Below the pieces are notes generated by a model. That model was not told the DNA's origin. It worked only from the letters and a program-made list of their open reading frames with translations, and did not search any database. Positions 4,000 through 48,629 of a stretch of 64,000 nt of DNA are shown piece after piece. Source of the DNA: Ruditapes philippinarum (Eukaryota); assembly GCF_026571515.1 (NCBI RefSeq), contig NW_026852595.1:124001-188000 (forward strand), in the 5' to 3' direction. The translations under genes and the position numbers were made by a program. How positions within the stretch are numbered: the stretch's first letter is position 1; each line of letters starts with the position of its first letter.

Positions 4000-6900
4000 G
4001 AGTCTAAGTCTTTCTTTGTTTCTAAAATGCGTGCTTTGTTTGTCAGAACTTGTCCTTTTATCATTATTAACACCGTCTACGGTCCATGTTCCGCTCACAA
4101 TCTTGGTCTTTGGACTAATATCGAGTCTGTTGAAAGCAGGCTACGTGTACAATGTGTAAGGTCTCAATTGGAGGTACACGCCTTAAAACTTTGAGAACTT
4201 TTAAATTTGGCTTTTATTGCTCAGAAGTTTTAGATCTAGCAACGATACTCACAAATTTTACGAAATGGATGTTCCCTGGTTTCATATTTGAAACGTAGCT
4301 GGAATTGCTTTGCCCTGTGCGAACCCGAATCCCAAGTCGTCAATGGTAAATTCTCAGCCCCAACTGCCCCAGCGACATCAAAGCAACGATTTGGTCTGTG
4401 GATTCGCCACTTTTTTTCTGGTACGCCCACTAATGCGTAACAAGTTACGCCGTGAGTTACTGTCCGATCTGTTTGTTTAGCCTCCGTTACCAAAAGAGCC
4501 GGGGTTTCGAGTCTCGGACACTCGCTTTTCAAAGGTTTTATTTTCAGCTTCAAATACCTCTAACTTTTAGAGTTGGATTTTCGACAAACCACCATTAATA
4601 ACATCCTCCCCTTGTTTAGGGGGGGGCGGTCTGAAAAAGGGTTTTAAGAAGCGGGGCTTTTTTTCATGAGGGGCTTTTTTCACGGGGGTTTTTGTGTTAT
4701 GGTTCATCCATTTTGAAATTTTTTGGGCTGTGATCTGAAATTTCTTTTTCGTTATTTATCAAAAAGGGGGACGAGGTTTTCCCTTTTTTTTCTTTTAGAA
4801 AACACTGGGTGCTTTGTTTACCCTTTGTTTCACTTTATTCAACTAAAGGGTTAGCTTTGGTTTTGGTGGTATTTTTCAAAAAATTTGTCACGTTTAAAAA
4901 TATGTCAAGTCCCATATTAACGGTTTGTTTGTTCTATATGATTAAATTATTGGTATGAATGTTTAATAGCTATTAATGGAGCGCGACATAGGAAAAATTC
5001 AAATCAAAGTTTACTTGCTCACCTTTATGTATATAAAATTTTGCTTTTGACCAAAGTAAACATATTGAAAGGTTCATTTCCGTCAAGAAATTATATATTT
5101 TCCTAAAAAAGACACTTATCAAGCAAAATTTGTTCGCGCACTTTTTTCAACCCTCCATTATTCTAACCGGGACCTGATTTTTTGAAATGGTCATCTTAAG
5201 TTGCTACAATTGTTCCTTTAAACGAGCATTGTAAAACTGGCAAATATCTTTTACCAACAAAAAAGTGTTTAGGACTCTGGGGCTTTTAACTTTTCTTTCC
5301 CTTCTGAAATTTAAAAATAACAATGAATAAATTTCGGAATTTCGGTTGTCTTTAATTGCATTTCCCATATTCGTAGCGAAAGGTATAAATGGATTTGTTG
5401 TACGGGTTTCGGTGCTCCTTGTATTAGTTATGTAAATTTTGTTGTTTTTCTTAACGAGTAAATTTGTTGTTTCTGAAACAGCTAATGGAAATATGTTTTC
5501 AAGGTATTGTGGAAAGGGGACCTTAAACAGGTACTTTATTTTGATTTTACGCCTGGTTCTGAAGGGGGAAACCCACCCAAACTTTTTTAATAGCGAAATT
5601 GATCGATTTACCGACCGGGTAAGCCTGTTACTATGCTCGCTGGCATCATCTGTAGTTTTTCAAAATTGATTTGTTTTTCGAATATTACTGTACTCCGTCC
5701 CACACAACGGAGGGCTTTCTTCTAATATTGGACCATGTATTGAAATGTAAATTTTTTATTTGGTGGAGCGTTTTAGTTTAAACTTAAGTGCACGCTGGTA
5801 CCCAAAAAACTTTTAGAGGCTGGTGTCAATAATGTTTACCAAATATGCTGATGCCATTTTTAAAATCGGGTTGAAAAGTTTTTCCTAATGTTTTGTGATG
5901 ATCTTACAAACAAGAACTTATCATTAAAAGTTTCAGGTAGGCTTGTCCCGGATGTAGTTGATTTTTGAAAAAAAAAACTTAACCTCCGTTTTTTGGGATT
6001 TAAACTTACAAGCCTTGTTTTTGGACCATTCATCGATAATTTCGGGATTTCCGTGACTTAAAAGTGATTTCTTGTAGCGATGTTCATTGGAATGAAAACG
6101 GCCAATGAGCTGTTCATCCTGCGAAAAGACGTGTTTACTTTATCCCAAATTTTCTGGCAATTCTTAACAAGATTGAGAAATAAAAGAGGCCCAAAAGGGC
6201 CGATCCCTTGGGGTACGCCTTGCAGAGATGTCAAGTGTTTCGGACAGTTCTGAACCCTACAAAGACGGAACTGTTTTCTTCAGAGGGTAGTCGATAGTCC
6301 CTCAAAATTTAATAAATTTACCATAATAACCATACAGTGTAAGTTTAAAAAAAAGACCTTTGATGCCAGGACTCTGTCAAAAGCTTTGATATGTCACAAA
6401 ATTATACTGTATATTTTTTTTGTCAAATGTTCACAAATTTGTGTAAATGTCAATAAGCTGATTCCGTGATGTCAGGGAATAAAACCAGCTTGTAAATGGG
6501 ACTAGATTAAAAAATTTTTGAGTGTAGATGATTGTAAATATGTTTAAAGATAAACCCTTTTCCATTTAAACTTTACCTACACAGCTAATCAATGAGTTAG
6601 GTCTATAATTTGATGGCGGTTTTTTTTACTTTTTTAAAAGTGGCAATTTCCTTTTTGCAAATTTTCCAAGTTTTTTGGATAATATTCAGAGAGGAGGGGG
6701 CCTACTAAACAATATGTTAAAAGGATAAACATTTACTGATCGGTTTCTTTTAATAATTTATGCTTATTTGATTCAGGCCCGACTGCTTTATTTACGGCAA
6801 AAGTTAGTTGTCTAAAATTCTTTGATATTTAAGCTTAAAATCTTCTAAAATTGTTATTTGATTTGTAAACCAATTCCGGAAGATGAGTAGCTGATGGTCA

Positions 6901-12683: not shown

Positions 12684-13791
12684 TTATTGTCCCCCGCCTT
12701 TTCGAAGAAAAAGGGGGGTATATAAATAGTCTCCGTCCGTCCGTCTGTCCATCCGCACTCACAGGACAGTAATTATGTGGCTAGAGGGACAATAGGTAAC
12801 TGTTCTTTCTCCTTGATGTCATTCATTCCGAAATGCTTTTATGTGGCTATTTTCTTTTGTGCGGCTAAAAAGAACAATAGAGAGAACAATAGAGTAGCCA
12901 CATTATTACTCTCCTGTTAGAACTTCAGTCTGTCCGTCCGTCACACTTTCGTGTCCGGTCCATAACTTTGTCATTTATCAAAGGAATTTGAAATAACTTG
13001 GCACAAATGTTTGTTATAATAAGACGATGTGTCATGCGCAACAACCAGACCCCTACCTCCAGGGTCAAGGTCGCACTTGCTCATTCAAGGTCAACATTGT
13101 CTATTTGAGGGTATATGTCGTGTCCGGTCCATAACTTTCTTATCTTTGAAGGGATTTTGTAAATACTTGCCACAATTGTTCACAATAATAAGACGATGTG
13201 TCATGCGCAACAACCGGTCACCTACCTCCAAGGTCAAGGTCACACTTGGAGGTCAAAGATTAACATAGTCTGTTATAGGGTATATTTTGTGTCCGGTCCA
13301 TAACTTTTTCATAGATCAAAGGATTTTGAAAATACTTGGCACAAATAGTCACTATATTAAGACAATGTGTCATGCGCAACACCTGCATCCCTACCTCCAA
13401 GGTCAAAGTCTCTCTTAGAGGTCAAAAATTAACATAGTCTGTTATAGGGTATATTTTGTGTCCGATCTATAACTCAAGGGATTTTGAAAATACTTGGCAC
13501 AAATAGTTACAATAACAAGACGATATGTCATGCATAACACTTGCACCCCTACCTCCAAGGTCAAGGTCACACTTAGAGGTCAAAGTCAAACATGATAGAT
13601 TTTTAAATTCCATGTTTCATTTTATTTCATTAATAAATTTATTATAGCATTTGCAGATCTAGCAATGATCATAATTTTGCACTGAAAGTCCTGAGATTCA
13701 TACCTCAATCTTTTGATATAGCACAATTTTATCCTTCATATAAAACTTCCCTGAGGCGGGGGACATTGGTAACTCTGTTACAAATTCTTGT
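12684..13791 (+). mobile_element. Non-autonomous Helentron-type (HINE/pearl-like) element with 169-bp internal tandem repeats
   Basis: Subterminal inverted repeats TGTCCCCCGCC (12688) and GGCGGGGGACA (13755), (TCCG)n microsatellite, GTCCG(G/A)TC motif at 12953/13122/13291/13460 (period 169), terminal hairpin followed by TCTTGT. Confidence 0.8.
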
Positions 13792-14899: not shown

Positions 14900-15735
14900 T
14901 ATGCGACGTTGAATATGTTAACATATCTGCTCTCGTATTTTGCCAAAATAGTCTCACCTTTATTTTTGTAGCAGAGAATTTTATAACTGTAGCATTAGAT
15001 GTTTTCGTATTTGCACCAGACGACAATGTCGTGCAAGTGGCTCAAAAATCTTTTGCATAGATCTCGATTTATCTGTTACAGTTCACCTTTGTACATCTGT
15101 AACAAATAATGTCTGTGTATATTGTTACACTAGACGTTGGTGTATCTATAACAGTAGAATTTAAGGTATATGTTATAGTTGACGTTGGTGTATCTTTTAC
15201 TGTAAATGTTACAGTAGATGTTGCTATACCAGTCATGAGAAATGTTGATGTACTTGTTTCTTAAGCTGTCAGTAAACGCTGGTGTATCTGTTACAAGTAA
15301 TATCGGTTTATCTTTTAGTCTAGCTTTCGAAGTTTCTCTTACAGTCGACGCTCGTGTATCTGTAACAATTGAAGTCGATATATTTGTTAAAAGAGATGTT
15401 GGTGTATCAGTTACAGTAGACACTGGTGTAGATGTTGATATATATATACCACAGTAGATGTTGTGGTATTTGTTACCGGAAATACCAATGTGTCTTTTAC
15501 GGAGCAAGTCACTGTTTCTCCCGAGGCAAAGATTGGTATATCTGTTTCAATCTTGTTTAGTGAATACCCAAGGACAGATAATTGTGTACCTAGGATAATA
15601 TTTACAGTTTATTTGTGTGACAGTTATAGCTGATGGTACATCTTGAGCAGTAAGAATTATTGTATATTTTACATTGGATACGACTGTATATTTTAAAGAA
15701 GATAATGGTTTATCTGATATTGATGATGGTGTTGT
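14900..15735 (-). pseudogene. Degenerate Thr-rich mucin-repeat coding sequence, a decayed continuation of the mucin exon
   Basis: Same GATGTTGGTGTATC/GTTACAGTAGA repeat vocabulary as 18.5-24.4 kb; ORF 15130-15507 reads STSTPVSTVTDTPTSLLTNISTSIVTDT; many frameshifts and stops. Confidence 0.7.
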
Positions 15736-17436
15736 TGTTGAATCACCCTTAGGATATGTTGCCTGCTTTTTAAATTTGTCTTTTGACGTCTTATCTGTGA
15801 TACGCAGGCTTCATAACCTCTGATCCCCTTTCAGAATTCCATTTTATTTAGTTCTGCCCATTGTTTTCTCGTTTAGGGCACACGCTTTTTATTACTTGGG
15901 GACCATACGCCGCTTTTCATGGAATGGCACGGAAGTGTCACATTGAAGGTTCCATGATAACCGCCGTATGAACACATCTGCGGATGTTTCAAAATTCAAA
16001 ATTTTACTATTTTACGTTTAAATGTTGAATTCTGCTTAAGCCGGTGCTAGGGGGCGTGGACGGTAATTTGCACTTTCCAGTACCGTCCATGAACAGGCTC
16101 AATCAAACCGAGCCTGCAACATTTTCAATTTTGCCGTGTTGGGCTTTCTTTAGGGATTCTATATTTATCTATTTTATGATCACATCCGTGTTATTTGTGC
16201 CGTGTGGCGGCTGTAAAAAGTCTCCCCGTACATTTAATCAATGATGTTATATTTTCGATCCTTGAAGATCGTTCAGCACGACATTATTGTTGTGCTTGTG
16301 GTATTTTTAGTTCCAACTTTTCGGCATTTTCTATATGGGTGGTTCCAATATTCCTACTTGAATAATGTTGAATCACCCTTAGGATATGTTGCCTGCTTTT
16401 TAAATTTGTCTTTTGACGTCTTATCTGTGATACGCAGGCTTCATAACCTCTGATCCCCTTTCAAAATTCCATTTTATTTAGTTCTGCCCATTGTTTTCTC
16501 GTTTAGGGCACACGCTTTTTATTACTTGGGGACCATACGCCGCTTTTCATGGAATGGCACGGAAGTGTCACATTGAAGGTTCCATGATAACCGCCGTATG
16601 AACACATCTGCGGATGTTTCTAAATTCAAAATTTTACTATTTCACGTTTAAATGTTGAATTCTGCTTAAGCCGGTGCTAGGGGGCGTGGACGGTAATTTG
16701 CACTTTCCAGTACCGTCCATGAACAGGCTCAATCAAACCGAGCCTGCAACATTTTCAATTTTGCCGTGTTGGGCTTTCTTTAGGGATTCTGTATTTATCT
16801 ATTTTATGATCACATCCGTGTTATTTGTGCCGTGTGGCGGCTGTAAAAAGTCTCCCCGTACATTTAATCAATGATGTTATATTTTCGATCCTTGAAGATC
16901 GTTCAGCACGACATTATTGTTGTGCTTGTGGTATTTTTAGTTCCAACTTTTCGGCATTTTCTATATGGGTGGTTCCAATATTCCTACTTGAATAATGTTG
17001 AATCACCCTTAGGATATGTTGCCTGCTTTTTAAATTTGTCTTTTGACGTCTTATCTGTGATACGCAGGCTTCATAACCTCTGATCCCCTTTCAGAATTCC
17101 ATTTTATTTAGTTCTGCCCATTGTTTTCTCGTTTAGGGCACACGCTTTTTATTACTTGGGGACCATACGCCGCTTTTCATGGAATGGCACGGAAGTGTCA
17201 CATTGAAGGTTCCATGATAACCGCCGTATGAACACATCTGCGGATGTTTCAAAATTCAAAATTTTACTATTTCACGTTTAAATGTTGAATTCTGCTTAAG
17301 CCGGTGCTAGGGGGGCGTGGACGGTAATTTGCACTTTCCAGTACCGTCCATGAACAGGCTCAATCAAACCGAGCCTGCAACATTTTCAATTTTGCCGTGT
17401 TGGGCTTTCTTTAGGGATTCTATATTTATCTATTTT
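15736..17436. repeat. 630-bp head-to-tail tandem repeat, ~2.7 near-identical copies
   Basis: AATCACCCTTAGG at 15741, 16371 and 17001; only a handful of substitutions and one 1-nt indel between copies. Confidence 0.97.
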
Positions 17437-18457
17437 GTGTGTTTTATTTTGCAGAAGATGTTGGTATATATAGTTCTATATATACAGTACATGTTCATAT
17501 ACAACGACTGTCTCAATAAGTCATGGACAATATAACGTTTTATTACAAAATACTAAAAAAAACCAACAAATTTCTAAAAAAATAATAATCTTTTCAATTG
17601 TCTCAAATGTTCATGGTCACTTGACCACGGGCATATCATTTTCTCATCACCTGTTGCATATTTATTACGAAATTTCTTTAACAACGATCGCGAAGCATTC
17701 TGTAACTTTTCCACTGTTTTTAACTTTTTTTAACAGGACTGTAAGTGTCATTCAGCACTAAATGCAAAAAAGATAACCATCTGCTGGGCCACATCAGCGT
17801 CAAATGTTTTTTTATTGTACTCATATGAGCACTACATGAAGATAAAGATGCACTGTATACATGTATGATGAAATTTCGCCATATAGCGTAAAAAACGAAA
17901 GGTTAATGTCAATGCCATAACATTGTGCAGCTTTTCTACCTTATTGTCCATTTACTCTGTTTTGAAGAGAATGTGTTACGTTTGTCAAATGACGATTTTT
18001 ATCGTGGGTCGCACATTCGCCTTAGGTCGTTATAAATACTTTAATATAAAATGTATGTATATTCCTTGATATAATGTTTCTTATTTTACTTAAAATAAAT
18101 GGAAATACGGTACTGCAAAATAATTTTATGACGTAATAGTTTTATTCTACAACCACTGTTCAAGACATTATGGGACAGCCATAGTACGAGTATATAGTAC
18201 AATGGATTGTGTTGTATCCGTCTCAGCAAATTTCTAACCACCATTTAACTTGTATTCGTACTTTGTTTGTTTAACTTCTGTTGTAGATGCCAATGAGCGC
18301 TTTGTATTTGATGCTTTTGAACCTTTGAGAGAAGAAGATAGGGTACCGGTATATGTTGCAGAAAATGTCGGTTTATACATTATAGACGATGTTGAGGTTT
18401 CTGTTACAACAGATTTAGGTTTATTAATATCTGTAACAGTAGCTGTAGATGTACTTG

Positions 18458-21400
18458 TTATAAGAGGTATTGATTACTTGTTATAAGAGGTATTATTATA
18501 TCTTTTTCAGCAGCTATCGCTTCATCTTTTACACCAGATGTTGGTGTATTTTTATCAGTAAAATTAGGTGTATCTGTTTTAGAAGCCATTTGTTTATTTG
18601 TTGAAAATGTTGATGTGTCTGTTACAGATGTTGGTGTAATTGTGACGGTAGAAATTGATATTATATTTAGAGAAGATGTTGGTGTATCTGTTACGGTATA
18701 TTCCGGTGTATCAGTTGCACTAGACGTTGGTGCAACTGTTGTAGTAAATATCGGTGTATCCTTTACAGCTGATGTCGGTGTATCAGCAACACGTGATGTA
18801 AGTGTAACTGTAACACTTGATGTCGGTGCAACTGTTCTTGTAGATCTTTGTGTATTTGTAATCATAGATGTCGGTGTGTCTGTTACAGAAGATACCGGTG
18901 TATCAGTTACACTAGAAGTTGGTGCAACTGTGCTAGAAGATGTTGGTACAACTATTCTAGTAGATGTTGGTATATACATTGCAGTATATGTCGGTGTTTC
19001 TGTTACACTAGATGTTGATGTATGTGTTACATTATAAGTTAATGCAACTGCTCTTGTAGATGTTGGTATGTCTGTAACAGTAAATGTTGGTGTATCTGTT
19101 ACAGTAGATGTCGGTGTATCTGTCACAGTAGATGTCGGTGTATCTGTTACACTAGATGTTGGTGTATCTGTTTCAGAATATGTCGGTGTATCTGTTACAG
19201 AAGATGTCTGTGTATCTGTTTCAGTATATGTTGGTGTATAAGTTATAGTAGATATAAGCGTATATGTTACACTAGATGTTGGTGTAACTTTTACAGTAGA
19301 TGTCGGTGTTAATGTTACACTAGATGTCGGTGTATCTGTTACAGTAAATGTCTGTGTATATGTAACAGTAGATGTCAGTGTATCAATTACTCTAGAAGGT
19401 AGTGCAATGGTTCTTGTAGACGTCGGTGCATCTGTTTTAGTAGATGTCGCTGTATCTGTTACAGTTAATGTCGGTGTATCTGTAACACTAAATGTTGGTG
19501 TAACTGTTACACTAGATGTCGGTGTATCAGTTGCACTAGAAGTTAGTACAACGTTTCTAGTAGATGTCGGTGTATCTGTTACAGTAGATGTTGATGTATC
19601 TGTTACACTAGATGTTGTTGCAACTGTTATAGTAGATATCGCTGTATCTGTTACAGTTGATGCCGGTGAATTTGTAACATTTGATGTTGGTGTAACTGTT
19701 GAACTAGAAGTCGTTGTATCAGTTACACTAGAAGTTAGTGGAAATGTTCTAGTTAAATTCAGTCTATCTGTTTCACTAGAAATCGGTGTAACTGTTCTAA
19801 TAGATGTTGGTATATCTATTACAGTAGCTGTCGATGTATCTGTTACAGTAGAAGTTAATGCAACTGTTCTAATAGATATCAGTGTGTCTGTTGCAGTAGA
19901 TGTTGATGCAACTGTCCTAGTAGATATCGGTGTATCTGTTACAGTTGATGTCGGTGTATGTGTTACACTAGAATATGGTGTAACTCTTCTAATAGATGTC
20001 GGTGTATCTGATAGACTAGATGTTGGTGTAACTGTTACACTAGAAGTTAAGGCAGCTGTTTTAGTAGATGTCGGTCTATCTGGTACACTATATGTTGATG
20101 TAAGTGTTACACTATGACTTGGTGCAACTGTTATTGTAGATGTTGGAATGTCTGTTAAAGTAAATGTCGGTGTATCTGTCAAAGTAGATGGCCGTGTATC
20201 TGTTACAGTTGATGTCGGTGTATCTGTTATAGTAGATGTCGTTGTATCTGTTACACTAGTAGATGTAAGTGTATCTGTTAGACTAAATGTCGGTGTATCT
20301 GTTTCAGTTGATGTCGGTGTTTCCTTTACACTAGATGTCGGTGTATTTGTTACAGTAGATGTCAGCGTATTTGTTGCACTAGATGTTTGTGTATCTGTTA
20401 CTCTAGATTTTGGTGTAGCTGTTACAAATGATGTCGGTGTATCTGTTACAGTAGATGTCTGTGCATCTGTTTCAGTTGATGTCGATGTATCTGTTACACT
20501 AGATTTTGGTATATTTGTTACAGTTAATGTCGTTGTATCTGTTACACTAGATGTCGATGCATCTGTTACAGATGATGTCGGTGTATCTGTAACACTAGAT
20601 GTCGGTTTATCTGTTACAGTAGATGTTGGTGTATCTGTTACAGTAGATGTCGGTGTATCTGTTACAGTTAATGTCTGTGTATCTGTTACAGTAGATGTCA
20701 GTGTATCTACTATACTAGATGTTTGTGTAACTGTGACACTAGATGTTGGTGAAACTGTTAATAAAGATATTGGTGTATCTGTTAAGGTAGATGTCAGTGT
20801 ATCAATTACACTAAAAGTTAATGCAATGGATCTTGTAAACGTCGGTGCATCTGTTTTAGTAGATGTCGCTGTACCTGTTACACTTAATGTCGGTGTATCT
20901 GTAACACTAAATGTTGGTGTAGCTAATACACTAGATGTCGGTGTATCAGTTGCACTAGAAGTTAGTTCAACGTTTCTTGTAGATGCCGGTGTAGCTGTTA
21001 CAGTAGATGTTGATGTATCTGTTACACTAGATGTTGTTGCAACTGTTCTAGTAGATATCACTGTATCTGTTAAAGTTGATGTTGGTGAATTTGTAACATT
21101 TGATGTTGAACTAGAAGTCGGTGTATCAGTTACACTAGAAGTTAGTGGAAATGTTCTAGTTAAATTCAGTCTATCTGGTTCACTAGAAATCGTTGTAACT
21201 GTTCTAATAGATGTTGGTATATGTGCTACAATAGCTGTCGATGTATCTGTTACAGTAGAAGTTAATGCAACTGATCTAATAGATATCGGTGTATCTGTTA
21301 CAGTTGATGTCGGTGTATGTGTTACACTAATATATGGTGTAACTCTTCTAATAGATGTCGGTGTATCTGATAGACTAGATGTTGGTGTAACTGTTACACT

Positions 21401-24400
21401 AGAAGTTAATGCAGCTGTTTTAGTAGATGTCGGTCTATCTGGTACACTAGATGTTGACGTAAGTGTTACACTATGACTTGGTGCAACTGTTCTTGTAGAT
21501 GTTGGAATGTTTGTTAAAGTAAATGTCGGTGTATCTGTCACAGTAGATGGCCGTGTATCTGTTACAGTTGATGTCGGTGTATCTGTTACAGAAGATGTCG
21601 GTGTGTCTGTTACAGTTGAAGTCGGTGTATCTGTTACAGTAGATGTCGTTGTATATGTTACACTAGTAGATGTCAGTGTATCTGTTACACTAAATGTCGG
21701 TGTATGTGTTACACTAGATGTCGGTGTATCTGTTACAGTAGATGTCAGCGTGTTTGTTACACTAGATGTTTGTATATCTTTTACTCTAGATTTTGGTGTA
21801 TCTGTTACAGTTGATGTTGGTGTATCTGTAACACTAGATTTCGGTGTATCGGTTACACTAGATGTCAGTGTATCTGTTACACTAGGTGTCGGTGTATCTG
21901 TTACTCTAGATGTCGATGTATCGGTTACAGTTGATGTCGGTGTATCTGTTACACTAGATGTCGGTGTATCTGTAACCGTAGTTGCCAGGGTATCTGTTAC
22001 AGTTGATGTCGATGTATCTGTTACACTAGATGTAGGTGTATATGTTACAGATGATGTCGGTGTATCTGTTAAACTAGATGTCGGTGTAACTGTTACAGAA
22101 GATGTCAGTGTATCTGTTACATTAGATGTTTGTGTATCTGTTACAGTTGATGTCAGTGTATCTGTTACAGTCTGTGTCGGTGTATCTGATACAGATAATG
22201 TCGGTGTATTTGTTACAGTTGATTTCGGTGAATCCGTTACACTAGATGTTTGTGTATTTGTTACAGTAGGTGTCGGTGTATATGTTACAGTTGATGTCGA
22301 TATATCTGTTACAGTTGATGTCAGTGTATCTGTTATCGTCTGTGTCGGTGTATCTGATACAGATAATGTCGGTGTATCTGTTACTGTTGGTATGGGTGTA
22401 TCTGTTTCTTTAGATGTCGGTGTATCTGTTACAGTAGGTGTCGGTGTATATGTTACAGTTGATGTTGATATATCTGTTACACTAGATGTTGGTGTATCTG
22501 CTACAGTTAGTGTCGGTGTTTCCGTTACCGTAGATGTTGGTGTATCTGTTACACTAGATTTTGCTGAATATGTTACAGTTGATGTCGGTGTATCTGTTAC
22601 ACTAGATGTCAATGTATATGTTACAGTTTTTGTCGGTGTATCTGTTACACTAGATTTTGGTGTATCTGTTACAGTTGATGTCGGTTTATCTGTTACACTA
22701 GATGTCGATGTATCTGTTAAAGTTGATGTCGGTGTATCTGTTACACTAGATGTCGGTGTATCTGTTAAAGTAGATGTCAGCATATCTGTTACAGTAGATG
22801 TTTGTGTATATGTTACAGTACGTGTCTGTGTATCTTTTACAGTTGATGTCGGTGTATCTGTTACATTAGATGTTGGTGTATCTGTTACACTAGATGTTTG
22901 TGTATCTGTTACACTAGATGTTGCTGTCCCTGTTACAGATGATGTCGGTGTATCTGTTACAGTAGATGCCGGTGTATCTGTAACAATAAATGTCGGTGTA
23001 TCTGTTACACTAGTTGTTAGTGTAACTGTTGAACTAGATGTTGGTGGAACTGTAATTAAAGATCTATCTTCTAGAGCAGATGTCGGTGTATCTGTTACAT
23101 TTAAAGTTGGTGCAATTGTATTAGTTGACACAGGTGTATGTGTTGCAGTAGATTTTGGTGTATTTATTAAACTAGATGTTGCCGCAACTGTTTCAATAGA
23201 TATCGGTGTATCTGTGTCAGTTGATGTCGGTGTATTTGTAACACTAGATACTGGTGTAACTGTTACACTAGATGTCGGTGCAACTGTTCCAGTAGATGTT
23301 GGTGTATCTGTAACAATAGCTGTCGGTGTATCTGTAACACTTGATAATGGTGTAACTGTTTCACTAGATGTCGTGGCAACTGTTCTAGTAGAAGTTGGTG
23401 TAACTGTAACTGTAGATGTCGGTGTATCTGTTGCAGTAAATGTCGGTGTATCTGTTACAATAGATGTTGGTGTAATTGTTACACTATAAGTTAATGCAAC
23501 TTTTCTTGTAGATTTTAGTGTATCTGTTACATTAGATGCTGATACAACTGTTTTTGTAGATGTCAATGTATCTGTAACAGTAGATGTCGGTGTTTCTGTT
23601 ACAGTAGATGTGAGTGTAGCTGTTACACTAGATGTTGATGGAACTGTTACACTAAATGTTGGTGCAACTGTTAAAGTAGGTACCGGTATATCTGTTACAG
23701 TAGGTGTCCATGTATCAGTTACAATAAAAGTTGGTGCAACTGTTCTAGTAGATTTCCGTGTATTTGTTAGAAAAGCTGTTGGTGTAATCGTTTCCGTAGA
23801 TGTCGGTGCGATTCTTTCGCTAGAAGTTGTTGTAACTGTTATTGTAGATGTCGGTGAATCTGTTACACTAGAAGTCGATGTAACTATTATAGTGAAGTCC
23901 GGTGTATTCGTTGAACTAGAAAGTGGTGTAACTTTTACAGTAGATGCCGGTGTACTCGTCACACTAGAATTCGATGTAAGTGTTACAGTTGATGTTGGTG
24001 TATTCGTTAAACTAGAAGTTGGTGTAACTGTTACTGTATCTGTTTCACTTGACGTAACGTTTTCAGTAGATGTCGGTGTATCTCTCAAACTAGAAATTGA
24101 CGTAGCTGCTACAGTAGAAGTTGATGTTTTTGTTGGACTAGACGTTGGTGCAGCTGTTATGGAAGGTATTATTGTATTTGTTGCAATTGATTCCTGTGTA
24201 CCTATTATAGCAGATGTTGGTGATTGTAATTCAGTAGATGCTTGTAACTCTATTACAGTAGTTATTGGCGTATCTGTAACAAAAGATACCAGTGTATATG
24301 TTAAAGAAGACAAAACCATGTCTGTTAAAAAGGATGTTGGGTTAGAAAGTGTCGTATCAGCATTTGATATAGCATTTATTGGCGTAGTAATTTGTTCCGT

Positions 24401-24462
24401 TTCTGTTGTCGTCGTTATCTTGGTACTGTATGTTGTTGATAGTGTAATGTTTGTCACAGTAT
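18458..24462 (-). CDS. Exon 4: ~6-kb mucin-type exon of 8-aa (24-bp) TVTDTPTS-like repeats
   Basis: Uninterrupted 2004-codon ORF; acceptor tttatgttttcag ending at 24463 joins in frame to the CCP exon. Confidence 0.9.
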
Positions 24463-27400
24463 CTGAAAACATAAATAAAGCAAATCATTAAAAAAGATTA
24501 TACATTTGAAAGGAAACGTTGGAACATCGTACAGAGTTTTTGGTGTTTTTTTGCACGATAGATTACAATGTTGCCATATAACGTGACCTTTCGGGTACAT
24601 TACACGCAGATTGTTCACCCGATGCACGTATGTTTTTTATTAATAACTTTGATGTTACTCAACCGATTTTGATCAGATAATAGTATCCGTAATTATATAA
24701 GCTACCATCTTTTGAAAACCCTTGAATGGTTTTTGAAAACATTCGATTACATTTTTTTTTCAAAGCCGTGGTCGAGGGGAACAGTACACACTTATTAATC
24801 ACATGCAAATTTACATTTTTTCTATTGATTTACATCGTTTTGAGAACCATAGGGCCTATTTCCCCCACTGTTTTATTTATAGATATAATTATTGAAAATC
24901 TTCATTATGTACTCTGGTTGATGTGTTTCATTTGAAAAATAAAACAGAGCATAATTAAGAAAGTGCTTCGTATCCCTCTCTAAAGTGTGTATGTTCCGTA
25001 ACCCTTTTAAAAGCATGTGCTCCGTAACATTTCATTAAAACTTGATGAACTAATGCTAAAACAGCACTGGATTATTGTAAAACATCAGCAAGAGTAAATC
25101 ATAAAGATTGTTCATATTTTATCTTTATCAAGCTGAGAATAAACAGGCCCTAGGGTTCTAAAAACTCTTTAAATAAATAAAATATGTAAATTTGAAAAAA
25201 AAGAAACACTTATATTATATTAAGTTAAAACAACTGTTCATATATTTTTTATCAGATTTATTTCAAAAAGACAGAAAATGTGTGTGTACCGTATCCTTTG
25301 AAATATAGAGTGCTCCGTACCATTTCAACAATATGCTAAAACATCACTGCATTCACTAGATACATTGGACATAGAAAATCTATAAGATTTAGCATTCATT
25401 TTTCTATGAAACTGTGGGAAAAAAACAGATGAATTGTTAGAAATGATGTGTTGTGATAAATGAATGTGTACCGTTCCTCTTGACCCCGGCTATAAAGAAA
25501 AATGAACTCGAATGCTCTCAAAAACTATTCAGTGATTTTCAGAACTTAGATTTATCGTTAGCAGCTTATATATAAGGACGTTGGGTACTCTGCGCCTTAT
25601 CTGATCAAAATCGGTTGAGTAACAAGAACGTTTTTAATAAAAAACATACCTGAATTTGGGTAAAACTCTACGTGTGCCGTTACCCGACAGGTCACGTGGT
25701 AAGGCCAGATTGAATAAGAGACAGTGAAATACTCACATGGGTGACAAGACAAATTGTTACTCCATGACCCATTTGTTAGACAAACTGCGCTTTTTACGCC
25801 GTCAACTTCTTTATAACCGTTGTCACAAAGGATTCGGATAGTACTGCCAATTGTATATTCGTTTCCTAAATAACGTCCACCCTGAACGTTTGGACGAGCA
25901 CATTCTGAAAATAGTTGATATAAATTCTTAAACCTTGTTTATTCTTCAAACGATTTTAATTATACACTGTACAGAAACCTGAGGAGAAGATAAATCATAT
26001 TCTTATTTCTAGAAATACCAAGTATCACTATCGGGACATTCGTTACTGGTTCTGGATGGAGACTTATCGAGTATTTAGTATCAAACGTTGACACAATATT
26101 ATATCTGTCACACATGGAGCTTAATGTGATACATTTTTCCTAGCGCTTCAATAAACGAAACTATATATGACGCAAAATTGTATGATGTACACGTATACAT
26201 GCATTTGTTTTAAATATGCGTTAATGTACGAGTGGTTTAGTTCATACGCATTTGCATGCTATTGATATTGGACGATAAAGTTATCGGTTATTGGTTACCT
26301 AGAGACAGACTAAAATAATTATGTTTAAAACGAAAACGAATGTTTTGAATACTGTCTTACCTGTTGTTATACATTGTCCGTTTGATAAGTCACAAGTCTT
26401 GTGAGAGGAGCATCCTGTACATGGCATCTGAAATCATAATAATAATTGTATAAGCATTGATTTGTTTCTGATTTTCAAAAGAACCTGTGGCTTTCTGAAG
26501 CGCGATAAATTAAAAAAAAGGGAAAATCAAATTCCAACAACTTAGAATGGAATTTAACCACACATTTTATAAAAAATTCAATTTCAATTCAATTTAACAT
26601 GCAGGGTTCATAGCAGAGGCTTAAGAGCAGCAATCTGTTTTCTAGCTGATATAATAAGTCAGAGTCTGTTAAGTCATGGTTCTGGCGAAAAAGTGCACAG
26701 GATATTTCAGGGGAAAATATTAGCTTTTTAGGGGAAAATATACCTATTTTGAGCTAGGGGAAACAGACTTTGTTCAGGTATGAAAAACATGGAAAAATCA
26801 CTGATAAGGCGTTAGAAAGAAACGTCGTGATAAGGTATAAGTGTTAAATTGGCCAAAGGCATGCTATCATGTAAGTTTGCTAAATAAAACTTAACTAAAC
26901 TGAACTGACAGTTCAATTTCAAAAATGTTTGACGATACGTTTCAAGTATGATTAATTTTTTTTTTTAAAAAGACGCAATCTATATGAAATCAATTTTTAT
27001 TCTAAATGGTCTTGTTGCTTTTTAATACATACTTATATATACATGTACAATAAAATGCTGAGAAAAATCCTTCGACAGCAACGAAAACAAAGCAAAAAAT
27101 GTAACAATTGCAGACTCGATTTAGTTGAGTCTGTTCATGAGAGATTATCTTATGTGCACAATACATCATGTACGTAGCACCGACTTAAGCGGTGTCCAAT
27201 CTATGACATTAAAAGTTTCAAAATTAAAAATCATGAAGGACCAATCGAAATATATATAAAATGTTAAAATGATTTTTGTATTTGAATTTTTACTAGAATT
27301 TACTTATTTGGTTCATTATGTCAGGTATCTTTCCTTAACCTCTTTTCCAACAAGTATACGGAATTCTTTATTCCTTGTTTTGTCTGGTTCAAAAAGTTGG

Positions 27401-27983
27401 AAAGTTATCAAAATATATATTATAATTATTTCGTATGTGTACGTTACAACTTTATCACAAAAATCACGAACACTGACTAAGGATAAAATTTGCTTCACAA
27501 AATTAAAGTAGGAACTTCTTTTTTAGAGTAAATTGCTTGATATAACTCAACTTTTCTCTCTTTTGGAGAACGCATTGTTGACTTAGACATGTGCTAAAAC
27601 ACAAATAAAACTCTGAACTACTCCAAACAATTTAAACTTGTATCTATACTTACATCTGTTATTACCATGTCAGATTTCCGTATATAATCACACACCGACT
27701 GATTGGAGAGCATGTCTTTATCGAGCAGTTGACACAGGTTATTTATACGCCTAATATAGTTCACAGCTTTGCATCTTGGCCGTTTGGCGCACTCTTTAAC
27801 ACAGTCATTTACGGACATTCCTTCTAAATGAAGAAAAACTGCGCTAGAGTCACCACAAATATTCAAGTTTGATAGTGTGTATTTAACTGACATTTTTGTC
27901 GCAAAACTTATCACTGAATTTCCAATTAGTATAGAAAATTGTAAGAAAAGACATCTTCGAAAACACGTCTTGTATAAAACCAT
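18458..27983 (-). CDS. Secreted/surface mucin-like protein: signal peptide, PAN/apple, Cys-rich EGF-like segment, Sushi/CCP, giant Thr/Ser/Pro-rich stalk (~2189 aa, 4 coding exons)
   Basis: Exons 27983-27654 (330 nt, phase 0), 26427-26361 (67 nt, MPCTGCSSHKTCDLSNGQC), 25904-25737 (168 nt, CCP) and 24462-18458. All introns are GT-AG and phases are consistent. Confidence 0.85.
24571..25708. mobile_element. Intronic non-autonomous DNA transposon with ~110-bp imperfect TIRs
   Basis: ACGTGACC...TTACTCAACCGATTTTGATCAGATAA (24581-24680) is the inverse of TTATCTGATCAAAATCGGTTGAGTAA...GGTCACGT (25597-25697). Confidence 0.75.
25737..25904 (-). CDS. Exon 3: Sushi/CCP domain
   Basis: ECARPNVQGGRYLGNEYTIGSTIRILCDNGYKEVDGVKSAVCLTNGSWSNNLSCHP; four Cys plus conserved Trp; symmetric phase 1-1 exon. 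Confidence 0.88.
27654..27983 (-). CDS. Exon 1: signal peptide plus PAN/apple-like domain
   Basis: Hydrophobic N-terminus then DCVKECAKRPRCKAVNY....LCQL; donor GAT|gtaagt at 27653. Confidence 0.85.
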
Positions 27984-29439
27984 CTTGATATTTCATTGAA
28001 GCTCTGACACTCCGAAGCTTAGCTGCTAACAATCATAAAATGATTTTCCAATTTTCCTTTATTTATTCAAAACAATAAATTCAACTGTTGTTAACGGATT
28101 CATAAAAGCCAATGACTTTGATATTTGATAAAATTTTGCATTAAGTTTTATTTATTTATGAAAGTGTTATTAAATATCAGTTTCTAGTTAATAAATCTTG
28201 CTCTGTTAACCTTTATAATTCAGTTTTATAACAATGCTTGAATGGTTTCGCATATACAATGTAACTTAAAAACATTAAAGAGCACATTACAGTTCCTGCA
28301 TGCAGATGTGATATTTTATTAATTTTTACAAAGTACAAATCACCTATTCTCTTGATTTCTTCTAATAACACCCTGAAATAAACAGAAACTGTTTCACTCT
28401 TTTTTTAAAAAAAGATATATTGACGTTTAAGTTGATAAACAAAACCAGTTATATCAAATTTGCTCCATATCAATACCGCAGTTATAAAATTTTTATGATT
28501 TAGAACACAATGTCTAGTAAATTCAACGTGTGTTGACATATTTTTAATGAATACAATAAAACGCTCTATGGTGTATAATTTCCCTTTGTTAAGTATGTCA
28601 GTGTACGTTAATGGCATTAAACAATATTTGATAAAAGACCTTATAAATAAGAAATGAAAACTTCATATCTATTCATCGATGCTACATAAAATGACTCCAT
28701 GATTTACAAAACTGCAACACGAAATATAGATTTACGAGAAAAAAATTCTTTAAAAAGAAAGAATGGTATATATTATATTGTTATTTAATACATTCTATTC
28801 TTGTGTTACTTCACGTGTTCTCTCAAAGTTCAACAGCATCAAGAGTAGCACTATTACATCATTTGAAAACCTTGCTCGTTTATCTGTTCCATCCGGGTAG
28901 ACGTGATTTATAAACATCAAACACTAATGATCACGCACTTAATTTAACAAATATCCAGCAGTATATTTTTTCTTCATTGCCACGTGACAAATGGCTTGTA
29001 TGAATGTCATTTGATATATAAAAAGAGTTTTGATTACCTTCTAAAGCGTGGTGTAAGTCCTGGAGAGGCACAGGGCATCAGATGATGATATACTATATTA
29101 GATTCTTTGCGATGTGTAACTACAGCTCACTGTGTTGTTAAGGCAGCCACATTTACCATAGAAGGTAGGTCGAAACGAATAATTTTGTATGAAAGTTGGC
29201 TGCTGATGTCTTGACTGAAGCCTAATACTCGCTCCTCTCCCTCCTTTTCGATGTTTTGTATGTGTTACATGCCTAATGTCAATGAAGATATTATGAATAT
29301 TATGAATGAAATGTTGAAGTAATTTGATTATTGATTCTATATTAGCAATTTCTTTATGATTTTATTTGTTTATTTTGATAAATTACGTGTAGTAAGTTGC
29401 TATCAAATTGAAAACAAAAATCCGAAAAAGTCTTATCTA

Positions 29440-30385
29440 CGATGGCACAGAAGTGATATATGTGTGTTTTAATTTATATCGTGCACACTAGATACTATGC
29501 CGTGGCTACTAAGTCTTGTGCACGAGATAATCAATTAGTGCGAACCAGATACTATGTCGTGGTCACGAGTTACTAAGTCGTGTGCACGAGATAAGAAAGT
29601 GATGCGCACGAGATATAATATTGTGCCCATGAGTTACTTAGTCGTGCGCATGAGATAATTAAATGGTGCGCACTAGATACTATGTAGTGGCCACGAGTCA
29701 CTAAGTTGTGTGCCCGAGATAATTAAGTGGTGAGTACGAGATACTATGTCGTGGCCTTTAGTAACTAAGTCTTGCGCACGAGATAATTAAGTGGTGCTCA
29801 CGAGATAATTAACCAATCGGATTACACAATATATATAAATATTATTTTTTTAAACTTAAAACATTCCTTATAATAGTTTTACATACAATATTAATGTTTT
29901 AAACTACTGACAGTATTCATTTTGAGCTACATACATGTCACAATCTAAAGCCTATTAATCAGACATGAATTTTGACTAGGTAAAGACCCTTTTTGGGGCC
30001 GTCCTGTGATAGGATTGATCAGTATGTACGTCCTAACGCCTTTTTAAACTTGTCCATACTATAACTTGAAAAAGAATATGCACTGGTTTATTTTATTGGA
30101 AGGGACAATACCAATGGCCAGTAAATGAGCTATATTGATGCGTAAGGTAATAAGGTCAAAGGTCAAGGTAACCAAGACGCTTCATGCAAAATCCTTGTCT
30201 GGTGAACAACTTGAAAAGGAAAAGCCATGGTTTATAAAACATTGAATGGACATTGCACCCGATCAGTAGATAACACCTAATAACTTTGTCAAAAATCAGG
30301 ATCACTATGACGTTTAATGTAATGTCATTGTCCAGTCAATAACTTGTATATATGGCACTGTGACAGGCAGGTGAAGTAGTAGCAC
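29440..30385 (+). mobile_element. Truncated copy of the TA-flanked foldback MITE family (full copy at 52070-53206)
   Basis: Left TIR TACGATGGCACAGAAGTG, ~20-bp GTCGTG...CACGAG subrepeats, and internal sequence shared with 52240-52780 (e.g. TTGCACCCGATCAGTAGATAACACCTAA); right arm missing. Confidence 0.8.
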
Positions 30386-32006: not shown

Positions 32007-32555
32007 CGGAATGCCGTTAGGGCCATCGCCTATGAATGTGTTAATCTGAAAAGCGATAGTCGATAGTACGATGGTGAAAACACGAAATCACGAAACTACG
32101 ATGGTGAAAACGCGATAGTACGATGATGAAAACGCGATAGTACGATGATGAAAACGCGATAGTACGATGATGAAAACACGACAGTACGATGGTGAAAACG
32201 CGATAGTACGATGATGAAAACACGACAGTACGATGATGAAAACGCGATAGTACGATGGTGAAAACGCGATAGTACGATGGCGAAAACGCGATAGTACGAT
32301 GATGAAAACGCGAAATCACGAAACTACGATGGTGAAAACGCGACAGTACGATGGTGAAAACACGATAGTTTATCGCGTTTTCATCATCGTAGTATCGTAC
32401 TGTCGCGTTTTCATCATCGTACCTTCGCATTTTCATCATCGTGCTTTCGCGTTTTCACCATCGTAGTTTCGTGATTTCGCGTTTTCACCATCGTACTATC
32501 GACTATCGCGTTTCAGATCAACACATTCATAGGCAATGGCCCTAACGGCATTCCG
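32007..32555. mobile_element. Foldback/MITE with ~100-bp TIRs and internal 21-bp tandem repeats
   Basis: CGGAATGCCGTTAGGGCCATCGCCTATGAATGTG versus CACATTCATAGGCAATGGCCCTAACGGCATTCCG-TA; GATAGTACGATGATGAAAACGC repeats switch orientation near 32370. Confidence 0.9.
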
Positions 32556-44590: not shown

Positions 44591-46599
44591 AAAGGAGTCA
44601 CAGGCAAAACTTTCTTATCTTCGACTTGAATTTTTCTTCCAACATTATATACATGTCATCGAAATGTATAAACTAAGCAGTATTGGGAACAAATATTTTC
44701 TCTATATAAAGAAAATAATGTTGGTTCCTAACCTGACCCACGTGGGTCAGGTTAGAGCATTTGGATTTTAGTGAACTATGGAAACGTAAAATAACCTGTC
44801 AAATAAGCCACTATCTGTTTTTCTTTTAACTTCTATGGTTTGTTATTGTTAAATTTCTTGTTTTAAGACTACAAAATGATTCTGTCTGCGTCTTCTTTCG
44901 TTCAACATAATTATGTAGATTTATTCACGTTTCAAACTCACATTATATAGTATTTAGATAGAAAAAAAATGCTGGGACTTTAAAAACCCCATAGCGTGAT
45001 TTGAGCAAATATTATAAATTTGATATTTACTAATTTATTTGCCTGAGTATTCCTTTAGCGTCATCATCATTATCATCATCATCATCATCATCATCATTCG
45101 AACATATTAACTGAGTAAACATTTGAAGACTGGTTTCATTGAATTAATCTCTGATCAACTCACATATAAAACGTGGGGAAAAGATACACATAGTACTTTT
45201 CAGAAGTATTTTCCTTTAGTAAAATAAAAAAAATATGAGGGAAGCGAAACCCATTTAACTCATCCCATAGAAAACCCCTGATAGATACCCCGGGCGTTTT
45301 TTTAAAATTTTGGGACGCTGCTTAAACCTTTCCCTTCCCAAAACTGGGATTTTAAAAAGTAATAACCCATCTTTAAAACGCAACAAAAAAATTTGACAAT
45401 TAAAAAAAAATACCAAAAAATTGAACCCCTTTTAAACCCGTTAAAGCAGTTATTTTAAATACTGCCCGTTTTAAAATTTTGGTAATTTTAAATTAAAAAA
45501 ACTGTTGATAAAACAACTTTGTAAATTTTAATGGTTTATAAAATAAAATTTGGGAAAACCATTAAAATGTAAATATTAAATTTCCCTTTTTACATATTTC
45601 TATGGTAAAACCTTTTTCGTAAGAGTTAAATGTATTAATTAATATTTGAGAAGTTCGTTTTGAAACAATAATCTAAGTAACAATAATCATGCAAAATAAT
45701 TATTTTCATGAATATTTGACTTGTATGCCCAGTGGGCTAATATTTCTTTAAACAGTCATGTATTTAGTTATGCGTTGACTTTGTTAAATTGCGATGTTTA
45801 AATACCTATTTTATTTATTCGTATTTTCCACTTGAACGAATCGAACTTGTAGGAGCGACTTTCTCAAACTTTTTTATTTTTATATAATCAGTTGCAAAAA
45901 CAACTGTGTACATGGTTATAGTGAGAATGAATAAAAGTATATGCATATTTGGTCTCAAAATCTAGGGATGTATTGACTATACAATGATTTACATTTCATC
46001 GAAATTTGATAATATTATTAGAACATTGGTAAACAGCTGACGGATGGAAATTAAAATATGCTCAAGAATTCAGCATTTTGTACACGCGTTTGTGCGTTTG
46101 GATACTTTAATTATTAAATGGAACATCATTCAAATCCATGTCCATACAGCGTTACGTCAGGCCTATGTCATCTAAAACACTTTATTTGATCTATAGATAT
46201 GATCAACGCAAAAGACACTGATTTATGGTCACATATCGAGACAAAACGAAAAACGTTTAACAACTTAACTCTGCAACCTTCCGCTGTTTACATGAAATAC
46301 AATACAAATAAAACCATTGTACGGTCATTCTATTTCTATACATGTATACATGTGTGTCTGATACAAAATATTGTAAATCTTACCTGAACTAGTCTGGTGA
46401 AGATTCCTGTAAGATTTATTATTACTTGTTCAGCTTAAATAAATATGAATGCATCTTTTACACACAAAAATGATATAATAGCTAAATACAACACCTTTTA
46501 GATGACATACAACTTAATTATTAATTATCTTTTAGAAAAAATAATACAAAAGCAAAAACAAAAACAAATGTATTTTCTATAGTTTGACCTTTTTTCCAG

Positions 46600-48629
46600 A
46601 TGGCTGAAGCCTGTGTGAACACCAGTAAATTACCAATACAGTGTCCGGTATGTCTTGACACTTATCAAAGACCACGTACATTACCATGTTTGCACTCGTT
46701 TTGTTCCACTTGTCTCCATAGTCACATAACAAACGCTGGCCAGAACGCGCACTTTTCTAGCTTTCTTTGTCCTGTTTGTCGAGCTAATACGAGACCACCA
46801 CGCCCTTATTCTGGGAAAGACACATGGACGGAGCAATTTCCTATAAATCATTGGATAGTATCAGTCATTGATGAAGCCACTGTTACACAACAAGATGACG
46901 CAATATACTGTGATTTACACCCAGACTCCAAAGTTAACCTGTATTGTTTCGATCATGAGACTGTTTGCTGTCCGATGTGCGTTGCGACTGCACACAGAAA
47001 ATGCGATCATGTTGACGAGATAGAAAAAGTATTAGCGTTATCTGATTATGAACACGAACGACAGGAACTTGTAGCGAACATTAAACATTCGGAAGACGTT
47101 CTTACAGACCTTGCGGCTAAATGCGCACTTGCTGATAGTAATCTTCAAATTGATAAAGACAAAATGACCAACGCCGTTGAAAAAGAATATACAGCAGCTG
47201 TAGAACACTTGGATACATTAAAACAATCAGCAATGGATAAAGTTGAACAGAATTGTAGACTCCTATCAAACGAAATACTTACCAAAAAACTAATCTGTAA
47301 TAAAGGAAAACAAACTTGTAAACAAGTTAAAGACATGTTAATGGAAACTAGAGAAAGAAATACACCCTTTGCAAGTTTTATACAGTCCATTTCTGCCCAA
47401 AACCCTTTAAAAAGAAAGCGTTTTATGTCGTTTTTCGAATGATTGGTTTCTTCAATAGGGAAAATCAAAAAATTTAAATTGGCCGTCCCCTTTACAGGAA
47501 ATGAAAAAAAATACGGTCGCTCGGGAGGGTTTTAAAAAACAAAAAAATGGCCCCCCGGGGGCAAGAAAAGGCAAAACCGTCCCCGTCCCCAAACTAAAAA
47601 TTTGGAGGGGCCATTTTGCAAGAAAGGAAAACATGGAAATCGCCCCCCTTTTAAAATAATATTGTTTTTCAAAAATTCAAAAGCCCAATAGCATGATGTA
47701 AATAAATGTTTACACCGACTGTATTAGGCAAAAGTTCTTTAAACTCCAATACTTAAAGTACTGGAATAATCCATTTTTTTAAACACCAAATTTGGGTCAC
47801 GGGGTTGGGAAATTTTTTCAAATGATTTCTAAAGATTTTTCAAACCCCGGAACCCACACTTCCCCTTTTTCCCCTTTTTTAAGGGGAAAAACCCTAGTTT
47901 ATGAGGAAAAAAAAAAACCACCCCCTTGGGTTTTTTAGCAAATTGTCTGACACCAGAGTAGTTGTTACATATCCCCAAGAAAGCCTTGTGCGTATCTTTG
48001 AAATTAAATGTAAGGGTGCAGTATCAAGATTGTTTAGAATCGTTGGTAGGCCTTTAAGCTCATGCAGAAAATTTTCTACTATAGACGCTTGTTTCGGTGT
48101 CGTTGTCGCAGTTGGTAGAATATTTCTCGCTTGCGAAGATTGCATTAAGGTATACACAGTTAACGGTGATTGCGTCCAGACTCTGAAATCATCCAATCGT
48201 GTAGACCCTCTATTTGAGAGGGTTATCAGTCTTTCATATGATCGTCAAAAAGCCACTTTGTACGCCGCAGATGAAGTTAGTCATGCAGTCTATTCATTTC
48301 AATTAGCAGGCGGGCAGTTAAGTCACCACTGTGGCTTTATATACAAAAATCAAAGTTTGCATTGTCCTAGAGGGATTGCGGTTGGTAAACACGGCGAGAT
48401 TTTTGTAACTGGTTTTGTATCCAAATCAGTTCATATTTTAAATGATAACGGAGAATGTATGAAAATTTTATCTACCGAGCAGAGCCCATGTGCCGTTTCT
48501 GTTGACCATAATCAGAGTTTACTTGTCATAAGTTTCTACCCTGATGCCGCTAGAAGAAATAGTGAAACTGCTAATGACGTCAGATTTTACAAGATCAAAT
48601 CAAGATTCAACTCACATCGCGTGCATTGA
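46600..48629 (+). CDS. TRIM-family E3 ubiquitin ligase-like protein (RING, B-box, coiled coil, NHL-like beta-propeller); middle disrupted, probably by sequence error
   Basis: RING CPVC..LPCLHSFCSTC..CPVC; B-box CDLH..LYCFDHETVCCPMCVATAHRKCDH; helical region; C-terminal LHCPRGIAVGKHGEIFVTGFVSKSVHIL (NHL-like). An acceptor ttttccag directly precedes the ATG; 47400-47940 is homopolymer-rich noise. Confidence 0.85.

Follow-up and report, generated by a model that had tools for sequence, protein, structure and literature searches.

A high-copy, non-coding clam element with the 5' end of selenoprotein-type Naiads and two covarying RNA structures

The window, a stretch of 64,000 nucleotides from contig NW_026852595.1 of Ruditapes philippinarum, carries at 15736–17436 (+) an insertion composed of one 5'-truncated unit and two full units of a non-autonomous, Naiad-type element. 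The family is non-coding and present in high copy number, it has the 5' end of clam Naiads and, by analogy with a related element, it would be mobilised in trans by a Naiad endonuclease-reverse transcriptase, a reading to which we give a probability of roughly 0.8. Parts of this reading that are directly supported are the head in common with Naiads, a right end that is fixed, the layout as a partial tandem, high copy number and two covarying plus-strand structures. The element is likely a ribozyme-free, non-autonomous derivative of Naiads that depends on internally initiated reverse transcription in trans. An earlier, sequence-only reading of this DNA had suggested that a structured, retrozyme-like element without coding capacity was inserted here recently, and this is upheld; its proposal that the element was copied from circular RNA or ssDNA and is of undescribed affinity is not supported, as the right end is fixed and the 5' end is that of a Naiad. 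In outline, the repeat is explained as a hammerhead-free, non-autonomous Naiad family with defined and testable RNA signals.

Layout of the insertion

The window sequence gives a period of 630 nt and 2.7 tandem copies at 15736–17436. Copy 1 differs from copy 2 by 4 substitutions and from copy 3 by 1 substitution and 1 extra G; the recomputed period and the few differences agree with the near-identical repeat described before. The phase of the unit had been set incorrectly. It begins at 16176 and not at 15736, because this is where the match to the Naiad head starts and where other copies have their right ends. The array therefore consists of a 5'-truncated first copy of 440 nt (15736–16175, +), the pseudo-LTR of a partial tandem as judged from the head match and from right ends elsewhere, followed by full unit 1 (16176–16805, +, 630 nt) and full unit 2 (16806–17436, +, 631 nt), which stops just before the next head would begin; the array end at 17436 corresponds to 16175. 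A truncated copy first, full copies after it and a fixed 3' end form the partial-tandem layout of Penelope-like elements. No long open frame was found in the six frames of the circularised 630-nt monomer, and no terminal inverted repeat among the 25 longest of 31 inverted pairs, in line with the earlier statement that a convincing ORF or TIR is lacking.

Copies 1 and 3 share three alleles (at 15834, 15991, 16161 and the matching sites), one of which is found in about 2% of other copies, while copy 2 carries the majority allele. This sharing may reflect a template jump, a dimer read 1.35 times, conversion or assembly mixing. The middle of the 630-nt unit, about 350 nt, is absent from the small relatives described below and includes a long hairpin (15904–15970, +); the 5' side of this hairpin, 15892–15941, is also complementary to the head. 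The origin of the middle was not found by sequence comparison, and a 25-nt likeness between it and the 5' UTR of two autonomous loci, L025 and L005, did not exceed the best of 200 shuffles.

The sequence that received the insertion is a decayed 24-bp mucin-like repeat, and no clear target duplication is seen. The intact part of this repeat (24-bp unit, 223 copies) forms a mucin-like frame of 2008 stop-free codons at 18458–24484 (-) with 8-residue repeats of Thr, Pro, Ser and Val and no Pfam match. Its decayed continuation extends over about 15000–15735 and 17437–18450, and the element is inserted in this decayed part. Elsewhere in the window, a TRIM-type gene occupies 46588–48629 (+), with a frame for RING and B-box and, after it, one that is NHL-like, and short arrays with units of 139–176 bp and 21–22 bp are located at 12949–13574, 56152–56412, 60581–61022, 62326–63043, 29507–29812, 32084–32513 and 52854–53160; we take these arrays to be of the bivalve satellite and MITE family kind.

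The Naiad head, the 3' core and their relatives

The Naiad head (16176–16267, +; second copy 630 nt further on) is the 5' end common to autonomous selenoprotein-type Naiads. Over the first 90 nt of the unit, 66–74 of 90–91 letters are identical to the loci L025, L028, L005 and L019, and the start of the published Naiad_Scon agrees with 16175–16250 at 60 of 76 letters in an ungapped comparison, made by eye after a short-word search of the PMC8557442 consensus file. A match to a known transposable element, which the sequence-only reading had named as a finding that would speak against its proposal, is thus present for these 90 nt of the unit. A pattern built from the near-invariant bulged hairpin motif of the head (16202–16228, +) was found at 46 loci, in 42 metagenome and 4 genome contigs, and not in viral contigs; exact or core patterns matched neither metagenome nor viral contigs. 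Six of the 46 loci were dropped as GC-rich chance matches, and the junction model, given five of these, matched 0. Among the 40 that remain, two datasets with similar numbering contribute 26, and these are not independent; the selection of loci for holding the head introduces a bias in starts.

At 6 of the 40 loci the head motif adjoins a Naiad reading frame: ahead of the frame in L005, L025 and L028, behind it in L019 and L026, and on both sides in L031. L025:647–3898 (+), L028:261–3506 (+) and L005 (-) carry selenoprotein-type Naiads that are complete or nearly so, each with four TGA codons in frame. If TGA is read through, the frames of L025 and L028 are open for 1083 and 1081 residues; both carry a GIY-YIG domain at the N terminus (Pfam E 1.2e-4 and 3.4e-4), and by eye the N-terminal parts are similar to Naiad_Scon and Naiad_Mmer, the positions of the first two Sec codons agreeing. 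The reverse transcriptase domain had no Pfam match and was recognised by motifs and by eye. A weak SECIS match lies right after the stop of the second frame (L028:3505–3567, E 0.054, below the Rfam cut-off).

Three of the contigs that carry Naiad or mini-Naiad DNA (L043 over its whole length of 561 nt, L044 near 4700–5050 and L046:5800–6230) are filed in bacterial assemblies, by their titles those of Puniceibacterium, Sedimenticola and Ca. Thiodiazotropha. They look like contamination from the animal host. Another locus contains a near-perfect AT-rich inverted repeat (L022:692–769) with sub-threshold microRNA-family matches.

Most other head loci are non-coding tandem or single units of 276–297 nt that combine the same head with the same 3' core. 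Of the 37 alignment ends of the 276-nt family that are not at contig edges, 20 lie in the 25 nt before the head, some of the others belonging to other families, where similarity stops; starts are scattered. Arrays among the matches of this family reach at most 3.7 units. The conserved 3' core of the unit in the window is located at 16015–16130 (+) and repeated at 16645–16760 and 17275–17391. It consists of a single-stranded, GCTA-G-rich leader, a hairpin (16055–16065/16081–16091), the dinucleotide AA and a short hairpin (16094–16100/16110–16116) with an A-rich loop. The G-rich leader may resemble the 3' half of the CTCF site.

A second, diverged family is represented in the window by a 5'-truncated copy with the same core at 27050–27209 (-), the right end being approximate, in which the short hairpin shows a compensatory change. 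The core model matches this copy at 27097–27209 (-), although the copy was part of the training alignment. Near 27100, the copy sits between a PAN-domain exon (27618–27992, -) and a Sushi-repeat exon (25597–25938, -). Outside its training set the core model matched 5 loci, and it matched 0 of 9 autonomous or autonomous-family loci; no match of the core to published bivalve Naiad 3' ends was found by eye or by short-word search. The pseudo-LTR of the autonomous loci features a different conserved core, which is also present in published clam and mussel Naiads. Since the core was found neither in the autonomous loci nor in the published 3' ends, only one end of the element is common to a known partner; as a structure, the short tail-to-head helix described below is all that the two have in common at the other end. 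The 3' core is likely either a second RNA signal, which could serve processing, stability or the binding of protein, or else the pseudo-LTR of an unsampled partner family.

RNA structure, copy ends and a model of copying

As a circle, the monomer folds at -179.0 kcal/mol on the plus strand and -164.1 kcal/mol on the minus strand; compared with 60 dinucleotide shuffles (z -5.6 and -6.1), both strands fold better. Two relatives, L037 and L023, reach z -3.7 each on the plus strand, against -0.5 and -1.1 on the minus strand, while a third, L016, does not fold better than its shuffles. The main predicted structure is a tail-to-head rod (16137–16278, +) that encloses a U-rich linker and the head hairpin. 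Its pairs 16148–16157/16258–16267 have a probability of 0.99 and 16137–16144/16271–16278 a probability of 0.90, and the helix is predicted in the tandem transcript and in the circle (0.99 in both); a single linear unit, in its best fold, also contains it, its two ends being paired.

Two structures covary. In the tail-to-head helix, cognate partners pair with a mean of -14.5 kcal/mol and non-cognate partners with -9.4 kcal/mol over 10 lineages (permutation p 1e-5); the cognate partner is the best in 6 of the 10, and 4 of the 10 lineages are autonomous or autonomous-like. For the helix enclosing the head, p is 0.09. RNAalifold on the junction alignment returned the head hairpin only, as the register of the flanking helices differs from family to family. 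In the two-hairpin core, 94% of 300 cells are paired over 17 sequences and 18 pairs, and 12 of the 18 pairs show double changes, figures that are inflated by relatedness and by the structure having been read off the same sequences; 0 of 500 shuffles scored as high, and slid controls were 24–56% paired. Where only one side of a pair in the head hairpin has changed, the result is a G-U wobble, and 12 of the 31 listed variant sites are paired compared with a background of 59% (p 0.02). The covariation, the wobbles and the two of three relatives that fold well only on the plus strand argue for selection on a plus-strand RNA fold, as had been suggested.

The previous description of a monomer tiled by stems stands in part. 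Six of the named stem pairs were checked and are exact in position, and the hairpin at 15904–15970 is as described, but several of the small stems are private to one copy or displaced. Most genomic copies have A at 15834 (98% of reads in run X21) and C at 15855 (about 90%), which break or shorten the TCTGA/TCAGA and TGCCC/GGGCA stems; the GGAA tetraloop at 15931–34 is variable, and the CGATC and AGCACGACA hairpins, with ensemble probabilities of 0.001 and 0.14, are displaced by the longer tail-to-head rod. An alternative long-range helix between 15892–15941 and the head had also been proposed. The complementarity is real (z -4.1), but the ensemble probability of the helix is 0.1%, and at 6 other loci it is not significant (z -1.4 to +1.3), which speaks against its conservation. 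A general pairing of a pseudo-LTR segment with the head in all Naiads failed the shuffle test.

Searches for known catalytic RNAs were negative. Rfam returned nothing at curated thresholds in the window, sub-threshold chance matches for the unit at E up to 10, and no ribozyme match for 9 relatives at E up to 5; in particular, HDV-like, twister, pistol, hatchet and hairpin ribozymes had no Rfam match in the unit or these relatives. The CTGANGA hammerhead core occurs on neither strand of the unit, and together with Rfam this bears out the earlier failure to find a canonical hammerhead. An HDV-like descriptor, used without a positive control, found nothing in the unit, and the twister, pistol, hairpin-ribozyme and hammerhead folds, compared by eye with the core on the basis of their consensus structures, did not fit. 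LTR/TRIM elements, telomerase RNA, 7SK and RNase MRP were dropped for lack of their motifs. A TRIM has TG...CA repeats, a primer-binding site, a purine tract and a target duplication of 4–6 bp; the repeat does start with TGTTG and CAACA is present at 16117–16121, yet copies end 40–55 nt later, and neither a target duplication nor a primer site was seen in the sequence.

The repeat stretch is present in 20 of 24 listed public runs, 14 of them from one organism, and four runs were mapped on one unit plus the left flank. In the DNA run X2, 65,664 of 11,464,516 contigs match the unit. In run X21, 150,668 of 12,895,792 reads match, or 0.7% of bases, which corresponds to about 8,000–19,000 copies if a genome of 1–1.5 Gb is assumed. 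X21 is filed as RNA-Seq and is read here as proximity-ligation-like DNA, given that GATC sites are where its loose ends are found; 73% of its matching reads continue into sequence unlike the unit, a pattern of proximity-ligation DNA libraries. The family is dispersed and very abundant, at roughly 0.7% of host DNA. Depth over 15746–16148 is 1.6 times that over 16180–16365, from which it follows that about half of the 3' parts have no head behind them. In the four runs, loose ends with T-rich, unlike flanks cluster behind 16158–16160 and 16174–16177, that is, in the U-rich linker (16158–16177, +), and the two clusters flank the single-stranded linker inside the rod. We infer that these clusters mark reverse-transcription start sites. 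They are about 16 nt apart; the tail described for Penelope-like elements is longer, 30–40 bp.

The RNA evidence comes from run X23. Five of the six RNA runs listed with the stretch (at a share of about 0.6, from invertebrate gut, fish, echinoderm and another mollusc) are not part of it. In X23, 1,264 of 7,369,024 reads match, mostly to diverged copies, with 20 reads at least 99% alike; this is about 1% of the DNA share, in a library that is unstranded, of unknown tissue and possibly selected against circles. Depth falls roughly tenfold, from 244 to 16, across the head-to-tail junction at 16179/16180, and there is no place where many molecules begin or end. On this low share and the drop at the junction, the X23 library shows no abundant circle. 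Transcription across the monomer junction, which the sequence-only reading had proposed to look for, amounts to little and junction-poor RNA in this one unstranded library.

A likely course of copying can be outlined on the model of the anole Poseidon. In PMC11167929, the protein of that element nicks AT-rich DNA, and reverse transcription starts within an RNA extending across the pseudo-LTR junction; this RNA must continue downstream of the start, two nearby start sites match genomic right ends, and hammerhead cleavage is dispensable in vitro. In the clam family, transcription of a tandem copy would yield an RNA in which one unit's tail continues into the next head, and this RNA would fold into the tail-to-head rod, presenting the head hairpin beside the single-stranded U-rich linker; a single unit could form the same helix end to end. 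The Naiad protein would bind there and, as in the account in PMC11167929, nick AT-rich DNA. Reverse transcription would then begin within the RNA, at either of two sites separated by about 16 nt, run back through one or more units and stop at a variable point, leaving a 5'-truncated copy ahead of full ones. Neither self-cleavage nor a covalent circle would be needed. The anatomy fits the anole model: the conserved head lies a short way downstream of the fixed ends, these ends form two clusters, and 5' truncation is variable.

Alternatives and known systems

We regard as improbable a retrozyme-like alternative, in which an undescribed self-cleaving ribozyme in the core cuts tandem transcripts to monomers, these circularise and the circles are copied by the Naiad enzyme. 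The unit does have the retrozyme-like trait of being short, low in GC and self-paired in tandem; the core covaries strongly, with invariant unpaired letters, and, like the hammerhead in retrozymes, it occurs in small tandem elements from several lineages, probably of bivalves, and in 0 of 9 autonomous-type loci. In addition, CTGATGA is held by 15 of 29 pattern-found cores, one of the 29 fits the loose hammerhead-core pattern of PMC8557442, and the alleles common to copies 1 and 3 are consistent with re-reading of a dimer template. Against it, neither the unit nor its 9 relatives have a ribozyme match in Rfam, the unit lacks a hammerhead core, the covarying short hairpin buries the letters that a hammerhead would need, and RNA is scarce and junction-poor in X23 (one unstranded library, possibly selected against circles). 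There is a comparably slight chance that the two-hairpin core takes the place of the hammerhead as a ribozyme of a new class, self-cleaving or assisted by protein, the elements then being hammerhead-free retrozymes; circular RNA intermediates would in that case be driven by a selenoprotein reverse transcriptase.

Distinctly less credible is a satellite-like repeat that arose from part of a Naiad, was multiplied through unequal crossing-over and gene conversion, and still folds only because of this origin. Near-identical tandem copies would be expected of it, and the X-Y-X allele pattern could be conversion, but the arrays are short, dispersed and fixed at the right end, many lineages have retained compensatory changes, and about half of the 3' parts lack a following head, as seen in the depth ratio of 1.6. 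Least probable of all is a non-autonomous rolling-circle DNA transposon of the Helitron2/Helentron or Replitron type, with the hairpins acting in ssDNA. A fixed, T-rich right end, tandem copies, the lack of a target duplication, hairpins near the end and the folding of both strands of the unit better than shuffles would all suit such an element; however, the head sits directly on retrotransposon reading frames and not on Rep or helicase, and both the G-U wobbles and the two relatives that fold well on the plus strand only speak for RNA. Among the 46 head-motif loci there was no Rep/HUH-encoding element.

The preferred reading, a non-autonomous Naiad derivative mobilised in trans, bears on a wider question. 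Naiads dominate many bivalve genomes, and the question is how they mark RNA for copying without the hammerhead of other Penelope-like elements. Passengers of 276–630 nt show the minimum that is kept: a head of about 90 nt, a covarying junction helix at the genomic right ends and a covarying core. The conserved paired-strand patterns point to RNA signals that are likely used by hammerhead-lacking Naiads, and short RNAs together with matching intact enzymes (L025, L028) allow a direct test of template recognition; the core is one well-defined orphan RNA motif for a cleavage assay. On the genomic side, the family accounts for about 0.7% of host DNA, and host Naiad DNA appears to sit in bacterial assemblies. 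A literature search that covered neither most subscription papers nor Repbase and Dfam found no description of RNA structure in Naiads or of non-autonomous bivalve Naiads. The 630-nt family may be present, as unknown, in automated repeat libraries, and the supplements of bioRxiv 10.64898/2026.07.22.740005 may list relatives.

Among known systems, the metazoan non-LTR retrozymes, as described in PMC7229834 and bioRxiv 10.64898/2026.07.22.740005, are likewise short, structured, non-coding, low-GC tandems; they are tied to pseudo-LTRs and are proposed users of Penelope-like machinery. The 630-nt unit lies above the size range of 150–450 given in PMC7229834 and within the 51–972 of the bioRxiv report. 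Unlike retrozymes, which in these accounts have a type I hammerhead per unit and abundant circular RNA, the clam family lacks the hammerhead and shows little RNA in one library. The parallel with Poseidon of Anolis carolinensis is an analogy, since Poseidon, as described in PMC11167929, is autonomous, belongs to another clade, carries a hammerhead and has a tail of 30–40 bp.

A non-coding element with head-to-tail multicopy insertions is also known from an alga, MRC1 (Chlamys) of Chlamydomonas reinhardtii. According to PMC8557442, it depends on a Penelope-like element that has an N-terminal endonuclease and no hammerhead, the same kind of partner as is proposed here. The present family differs from MRC1 in its host, an animal and not an alga, and in the similarity to its partner, which is at the 5' end here and generally at the 3' end in the algal elements; covarying RNA structures were found here and are not described for the algal elements in the parts of PMC8557442 consulted.

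The clam selenoprotein Naiads themselves, Naiad_Scon and Naiad_Mmer, have the common 5' end and a partial tandem with 5' truncation. As described in PMC8557442, they also resemble the present family in lacking a canonical hammerhead, in their very high copy number, and in an AT-rich insertion site with no clear target duplication; the function of the hammerhead is called unclear there, and Naiads thrive without it. In contrast with those clam Naiads, the unit has neither a reading frame nor a SECIS match and measures 630 nt, compared with 3.3–4.4 kb, and its 3' core differs from that of both the published and the newly found clam Naiads.
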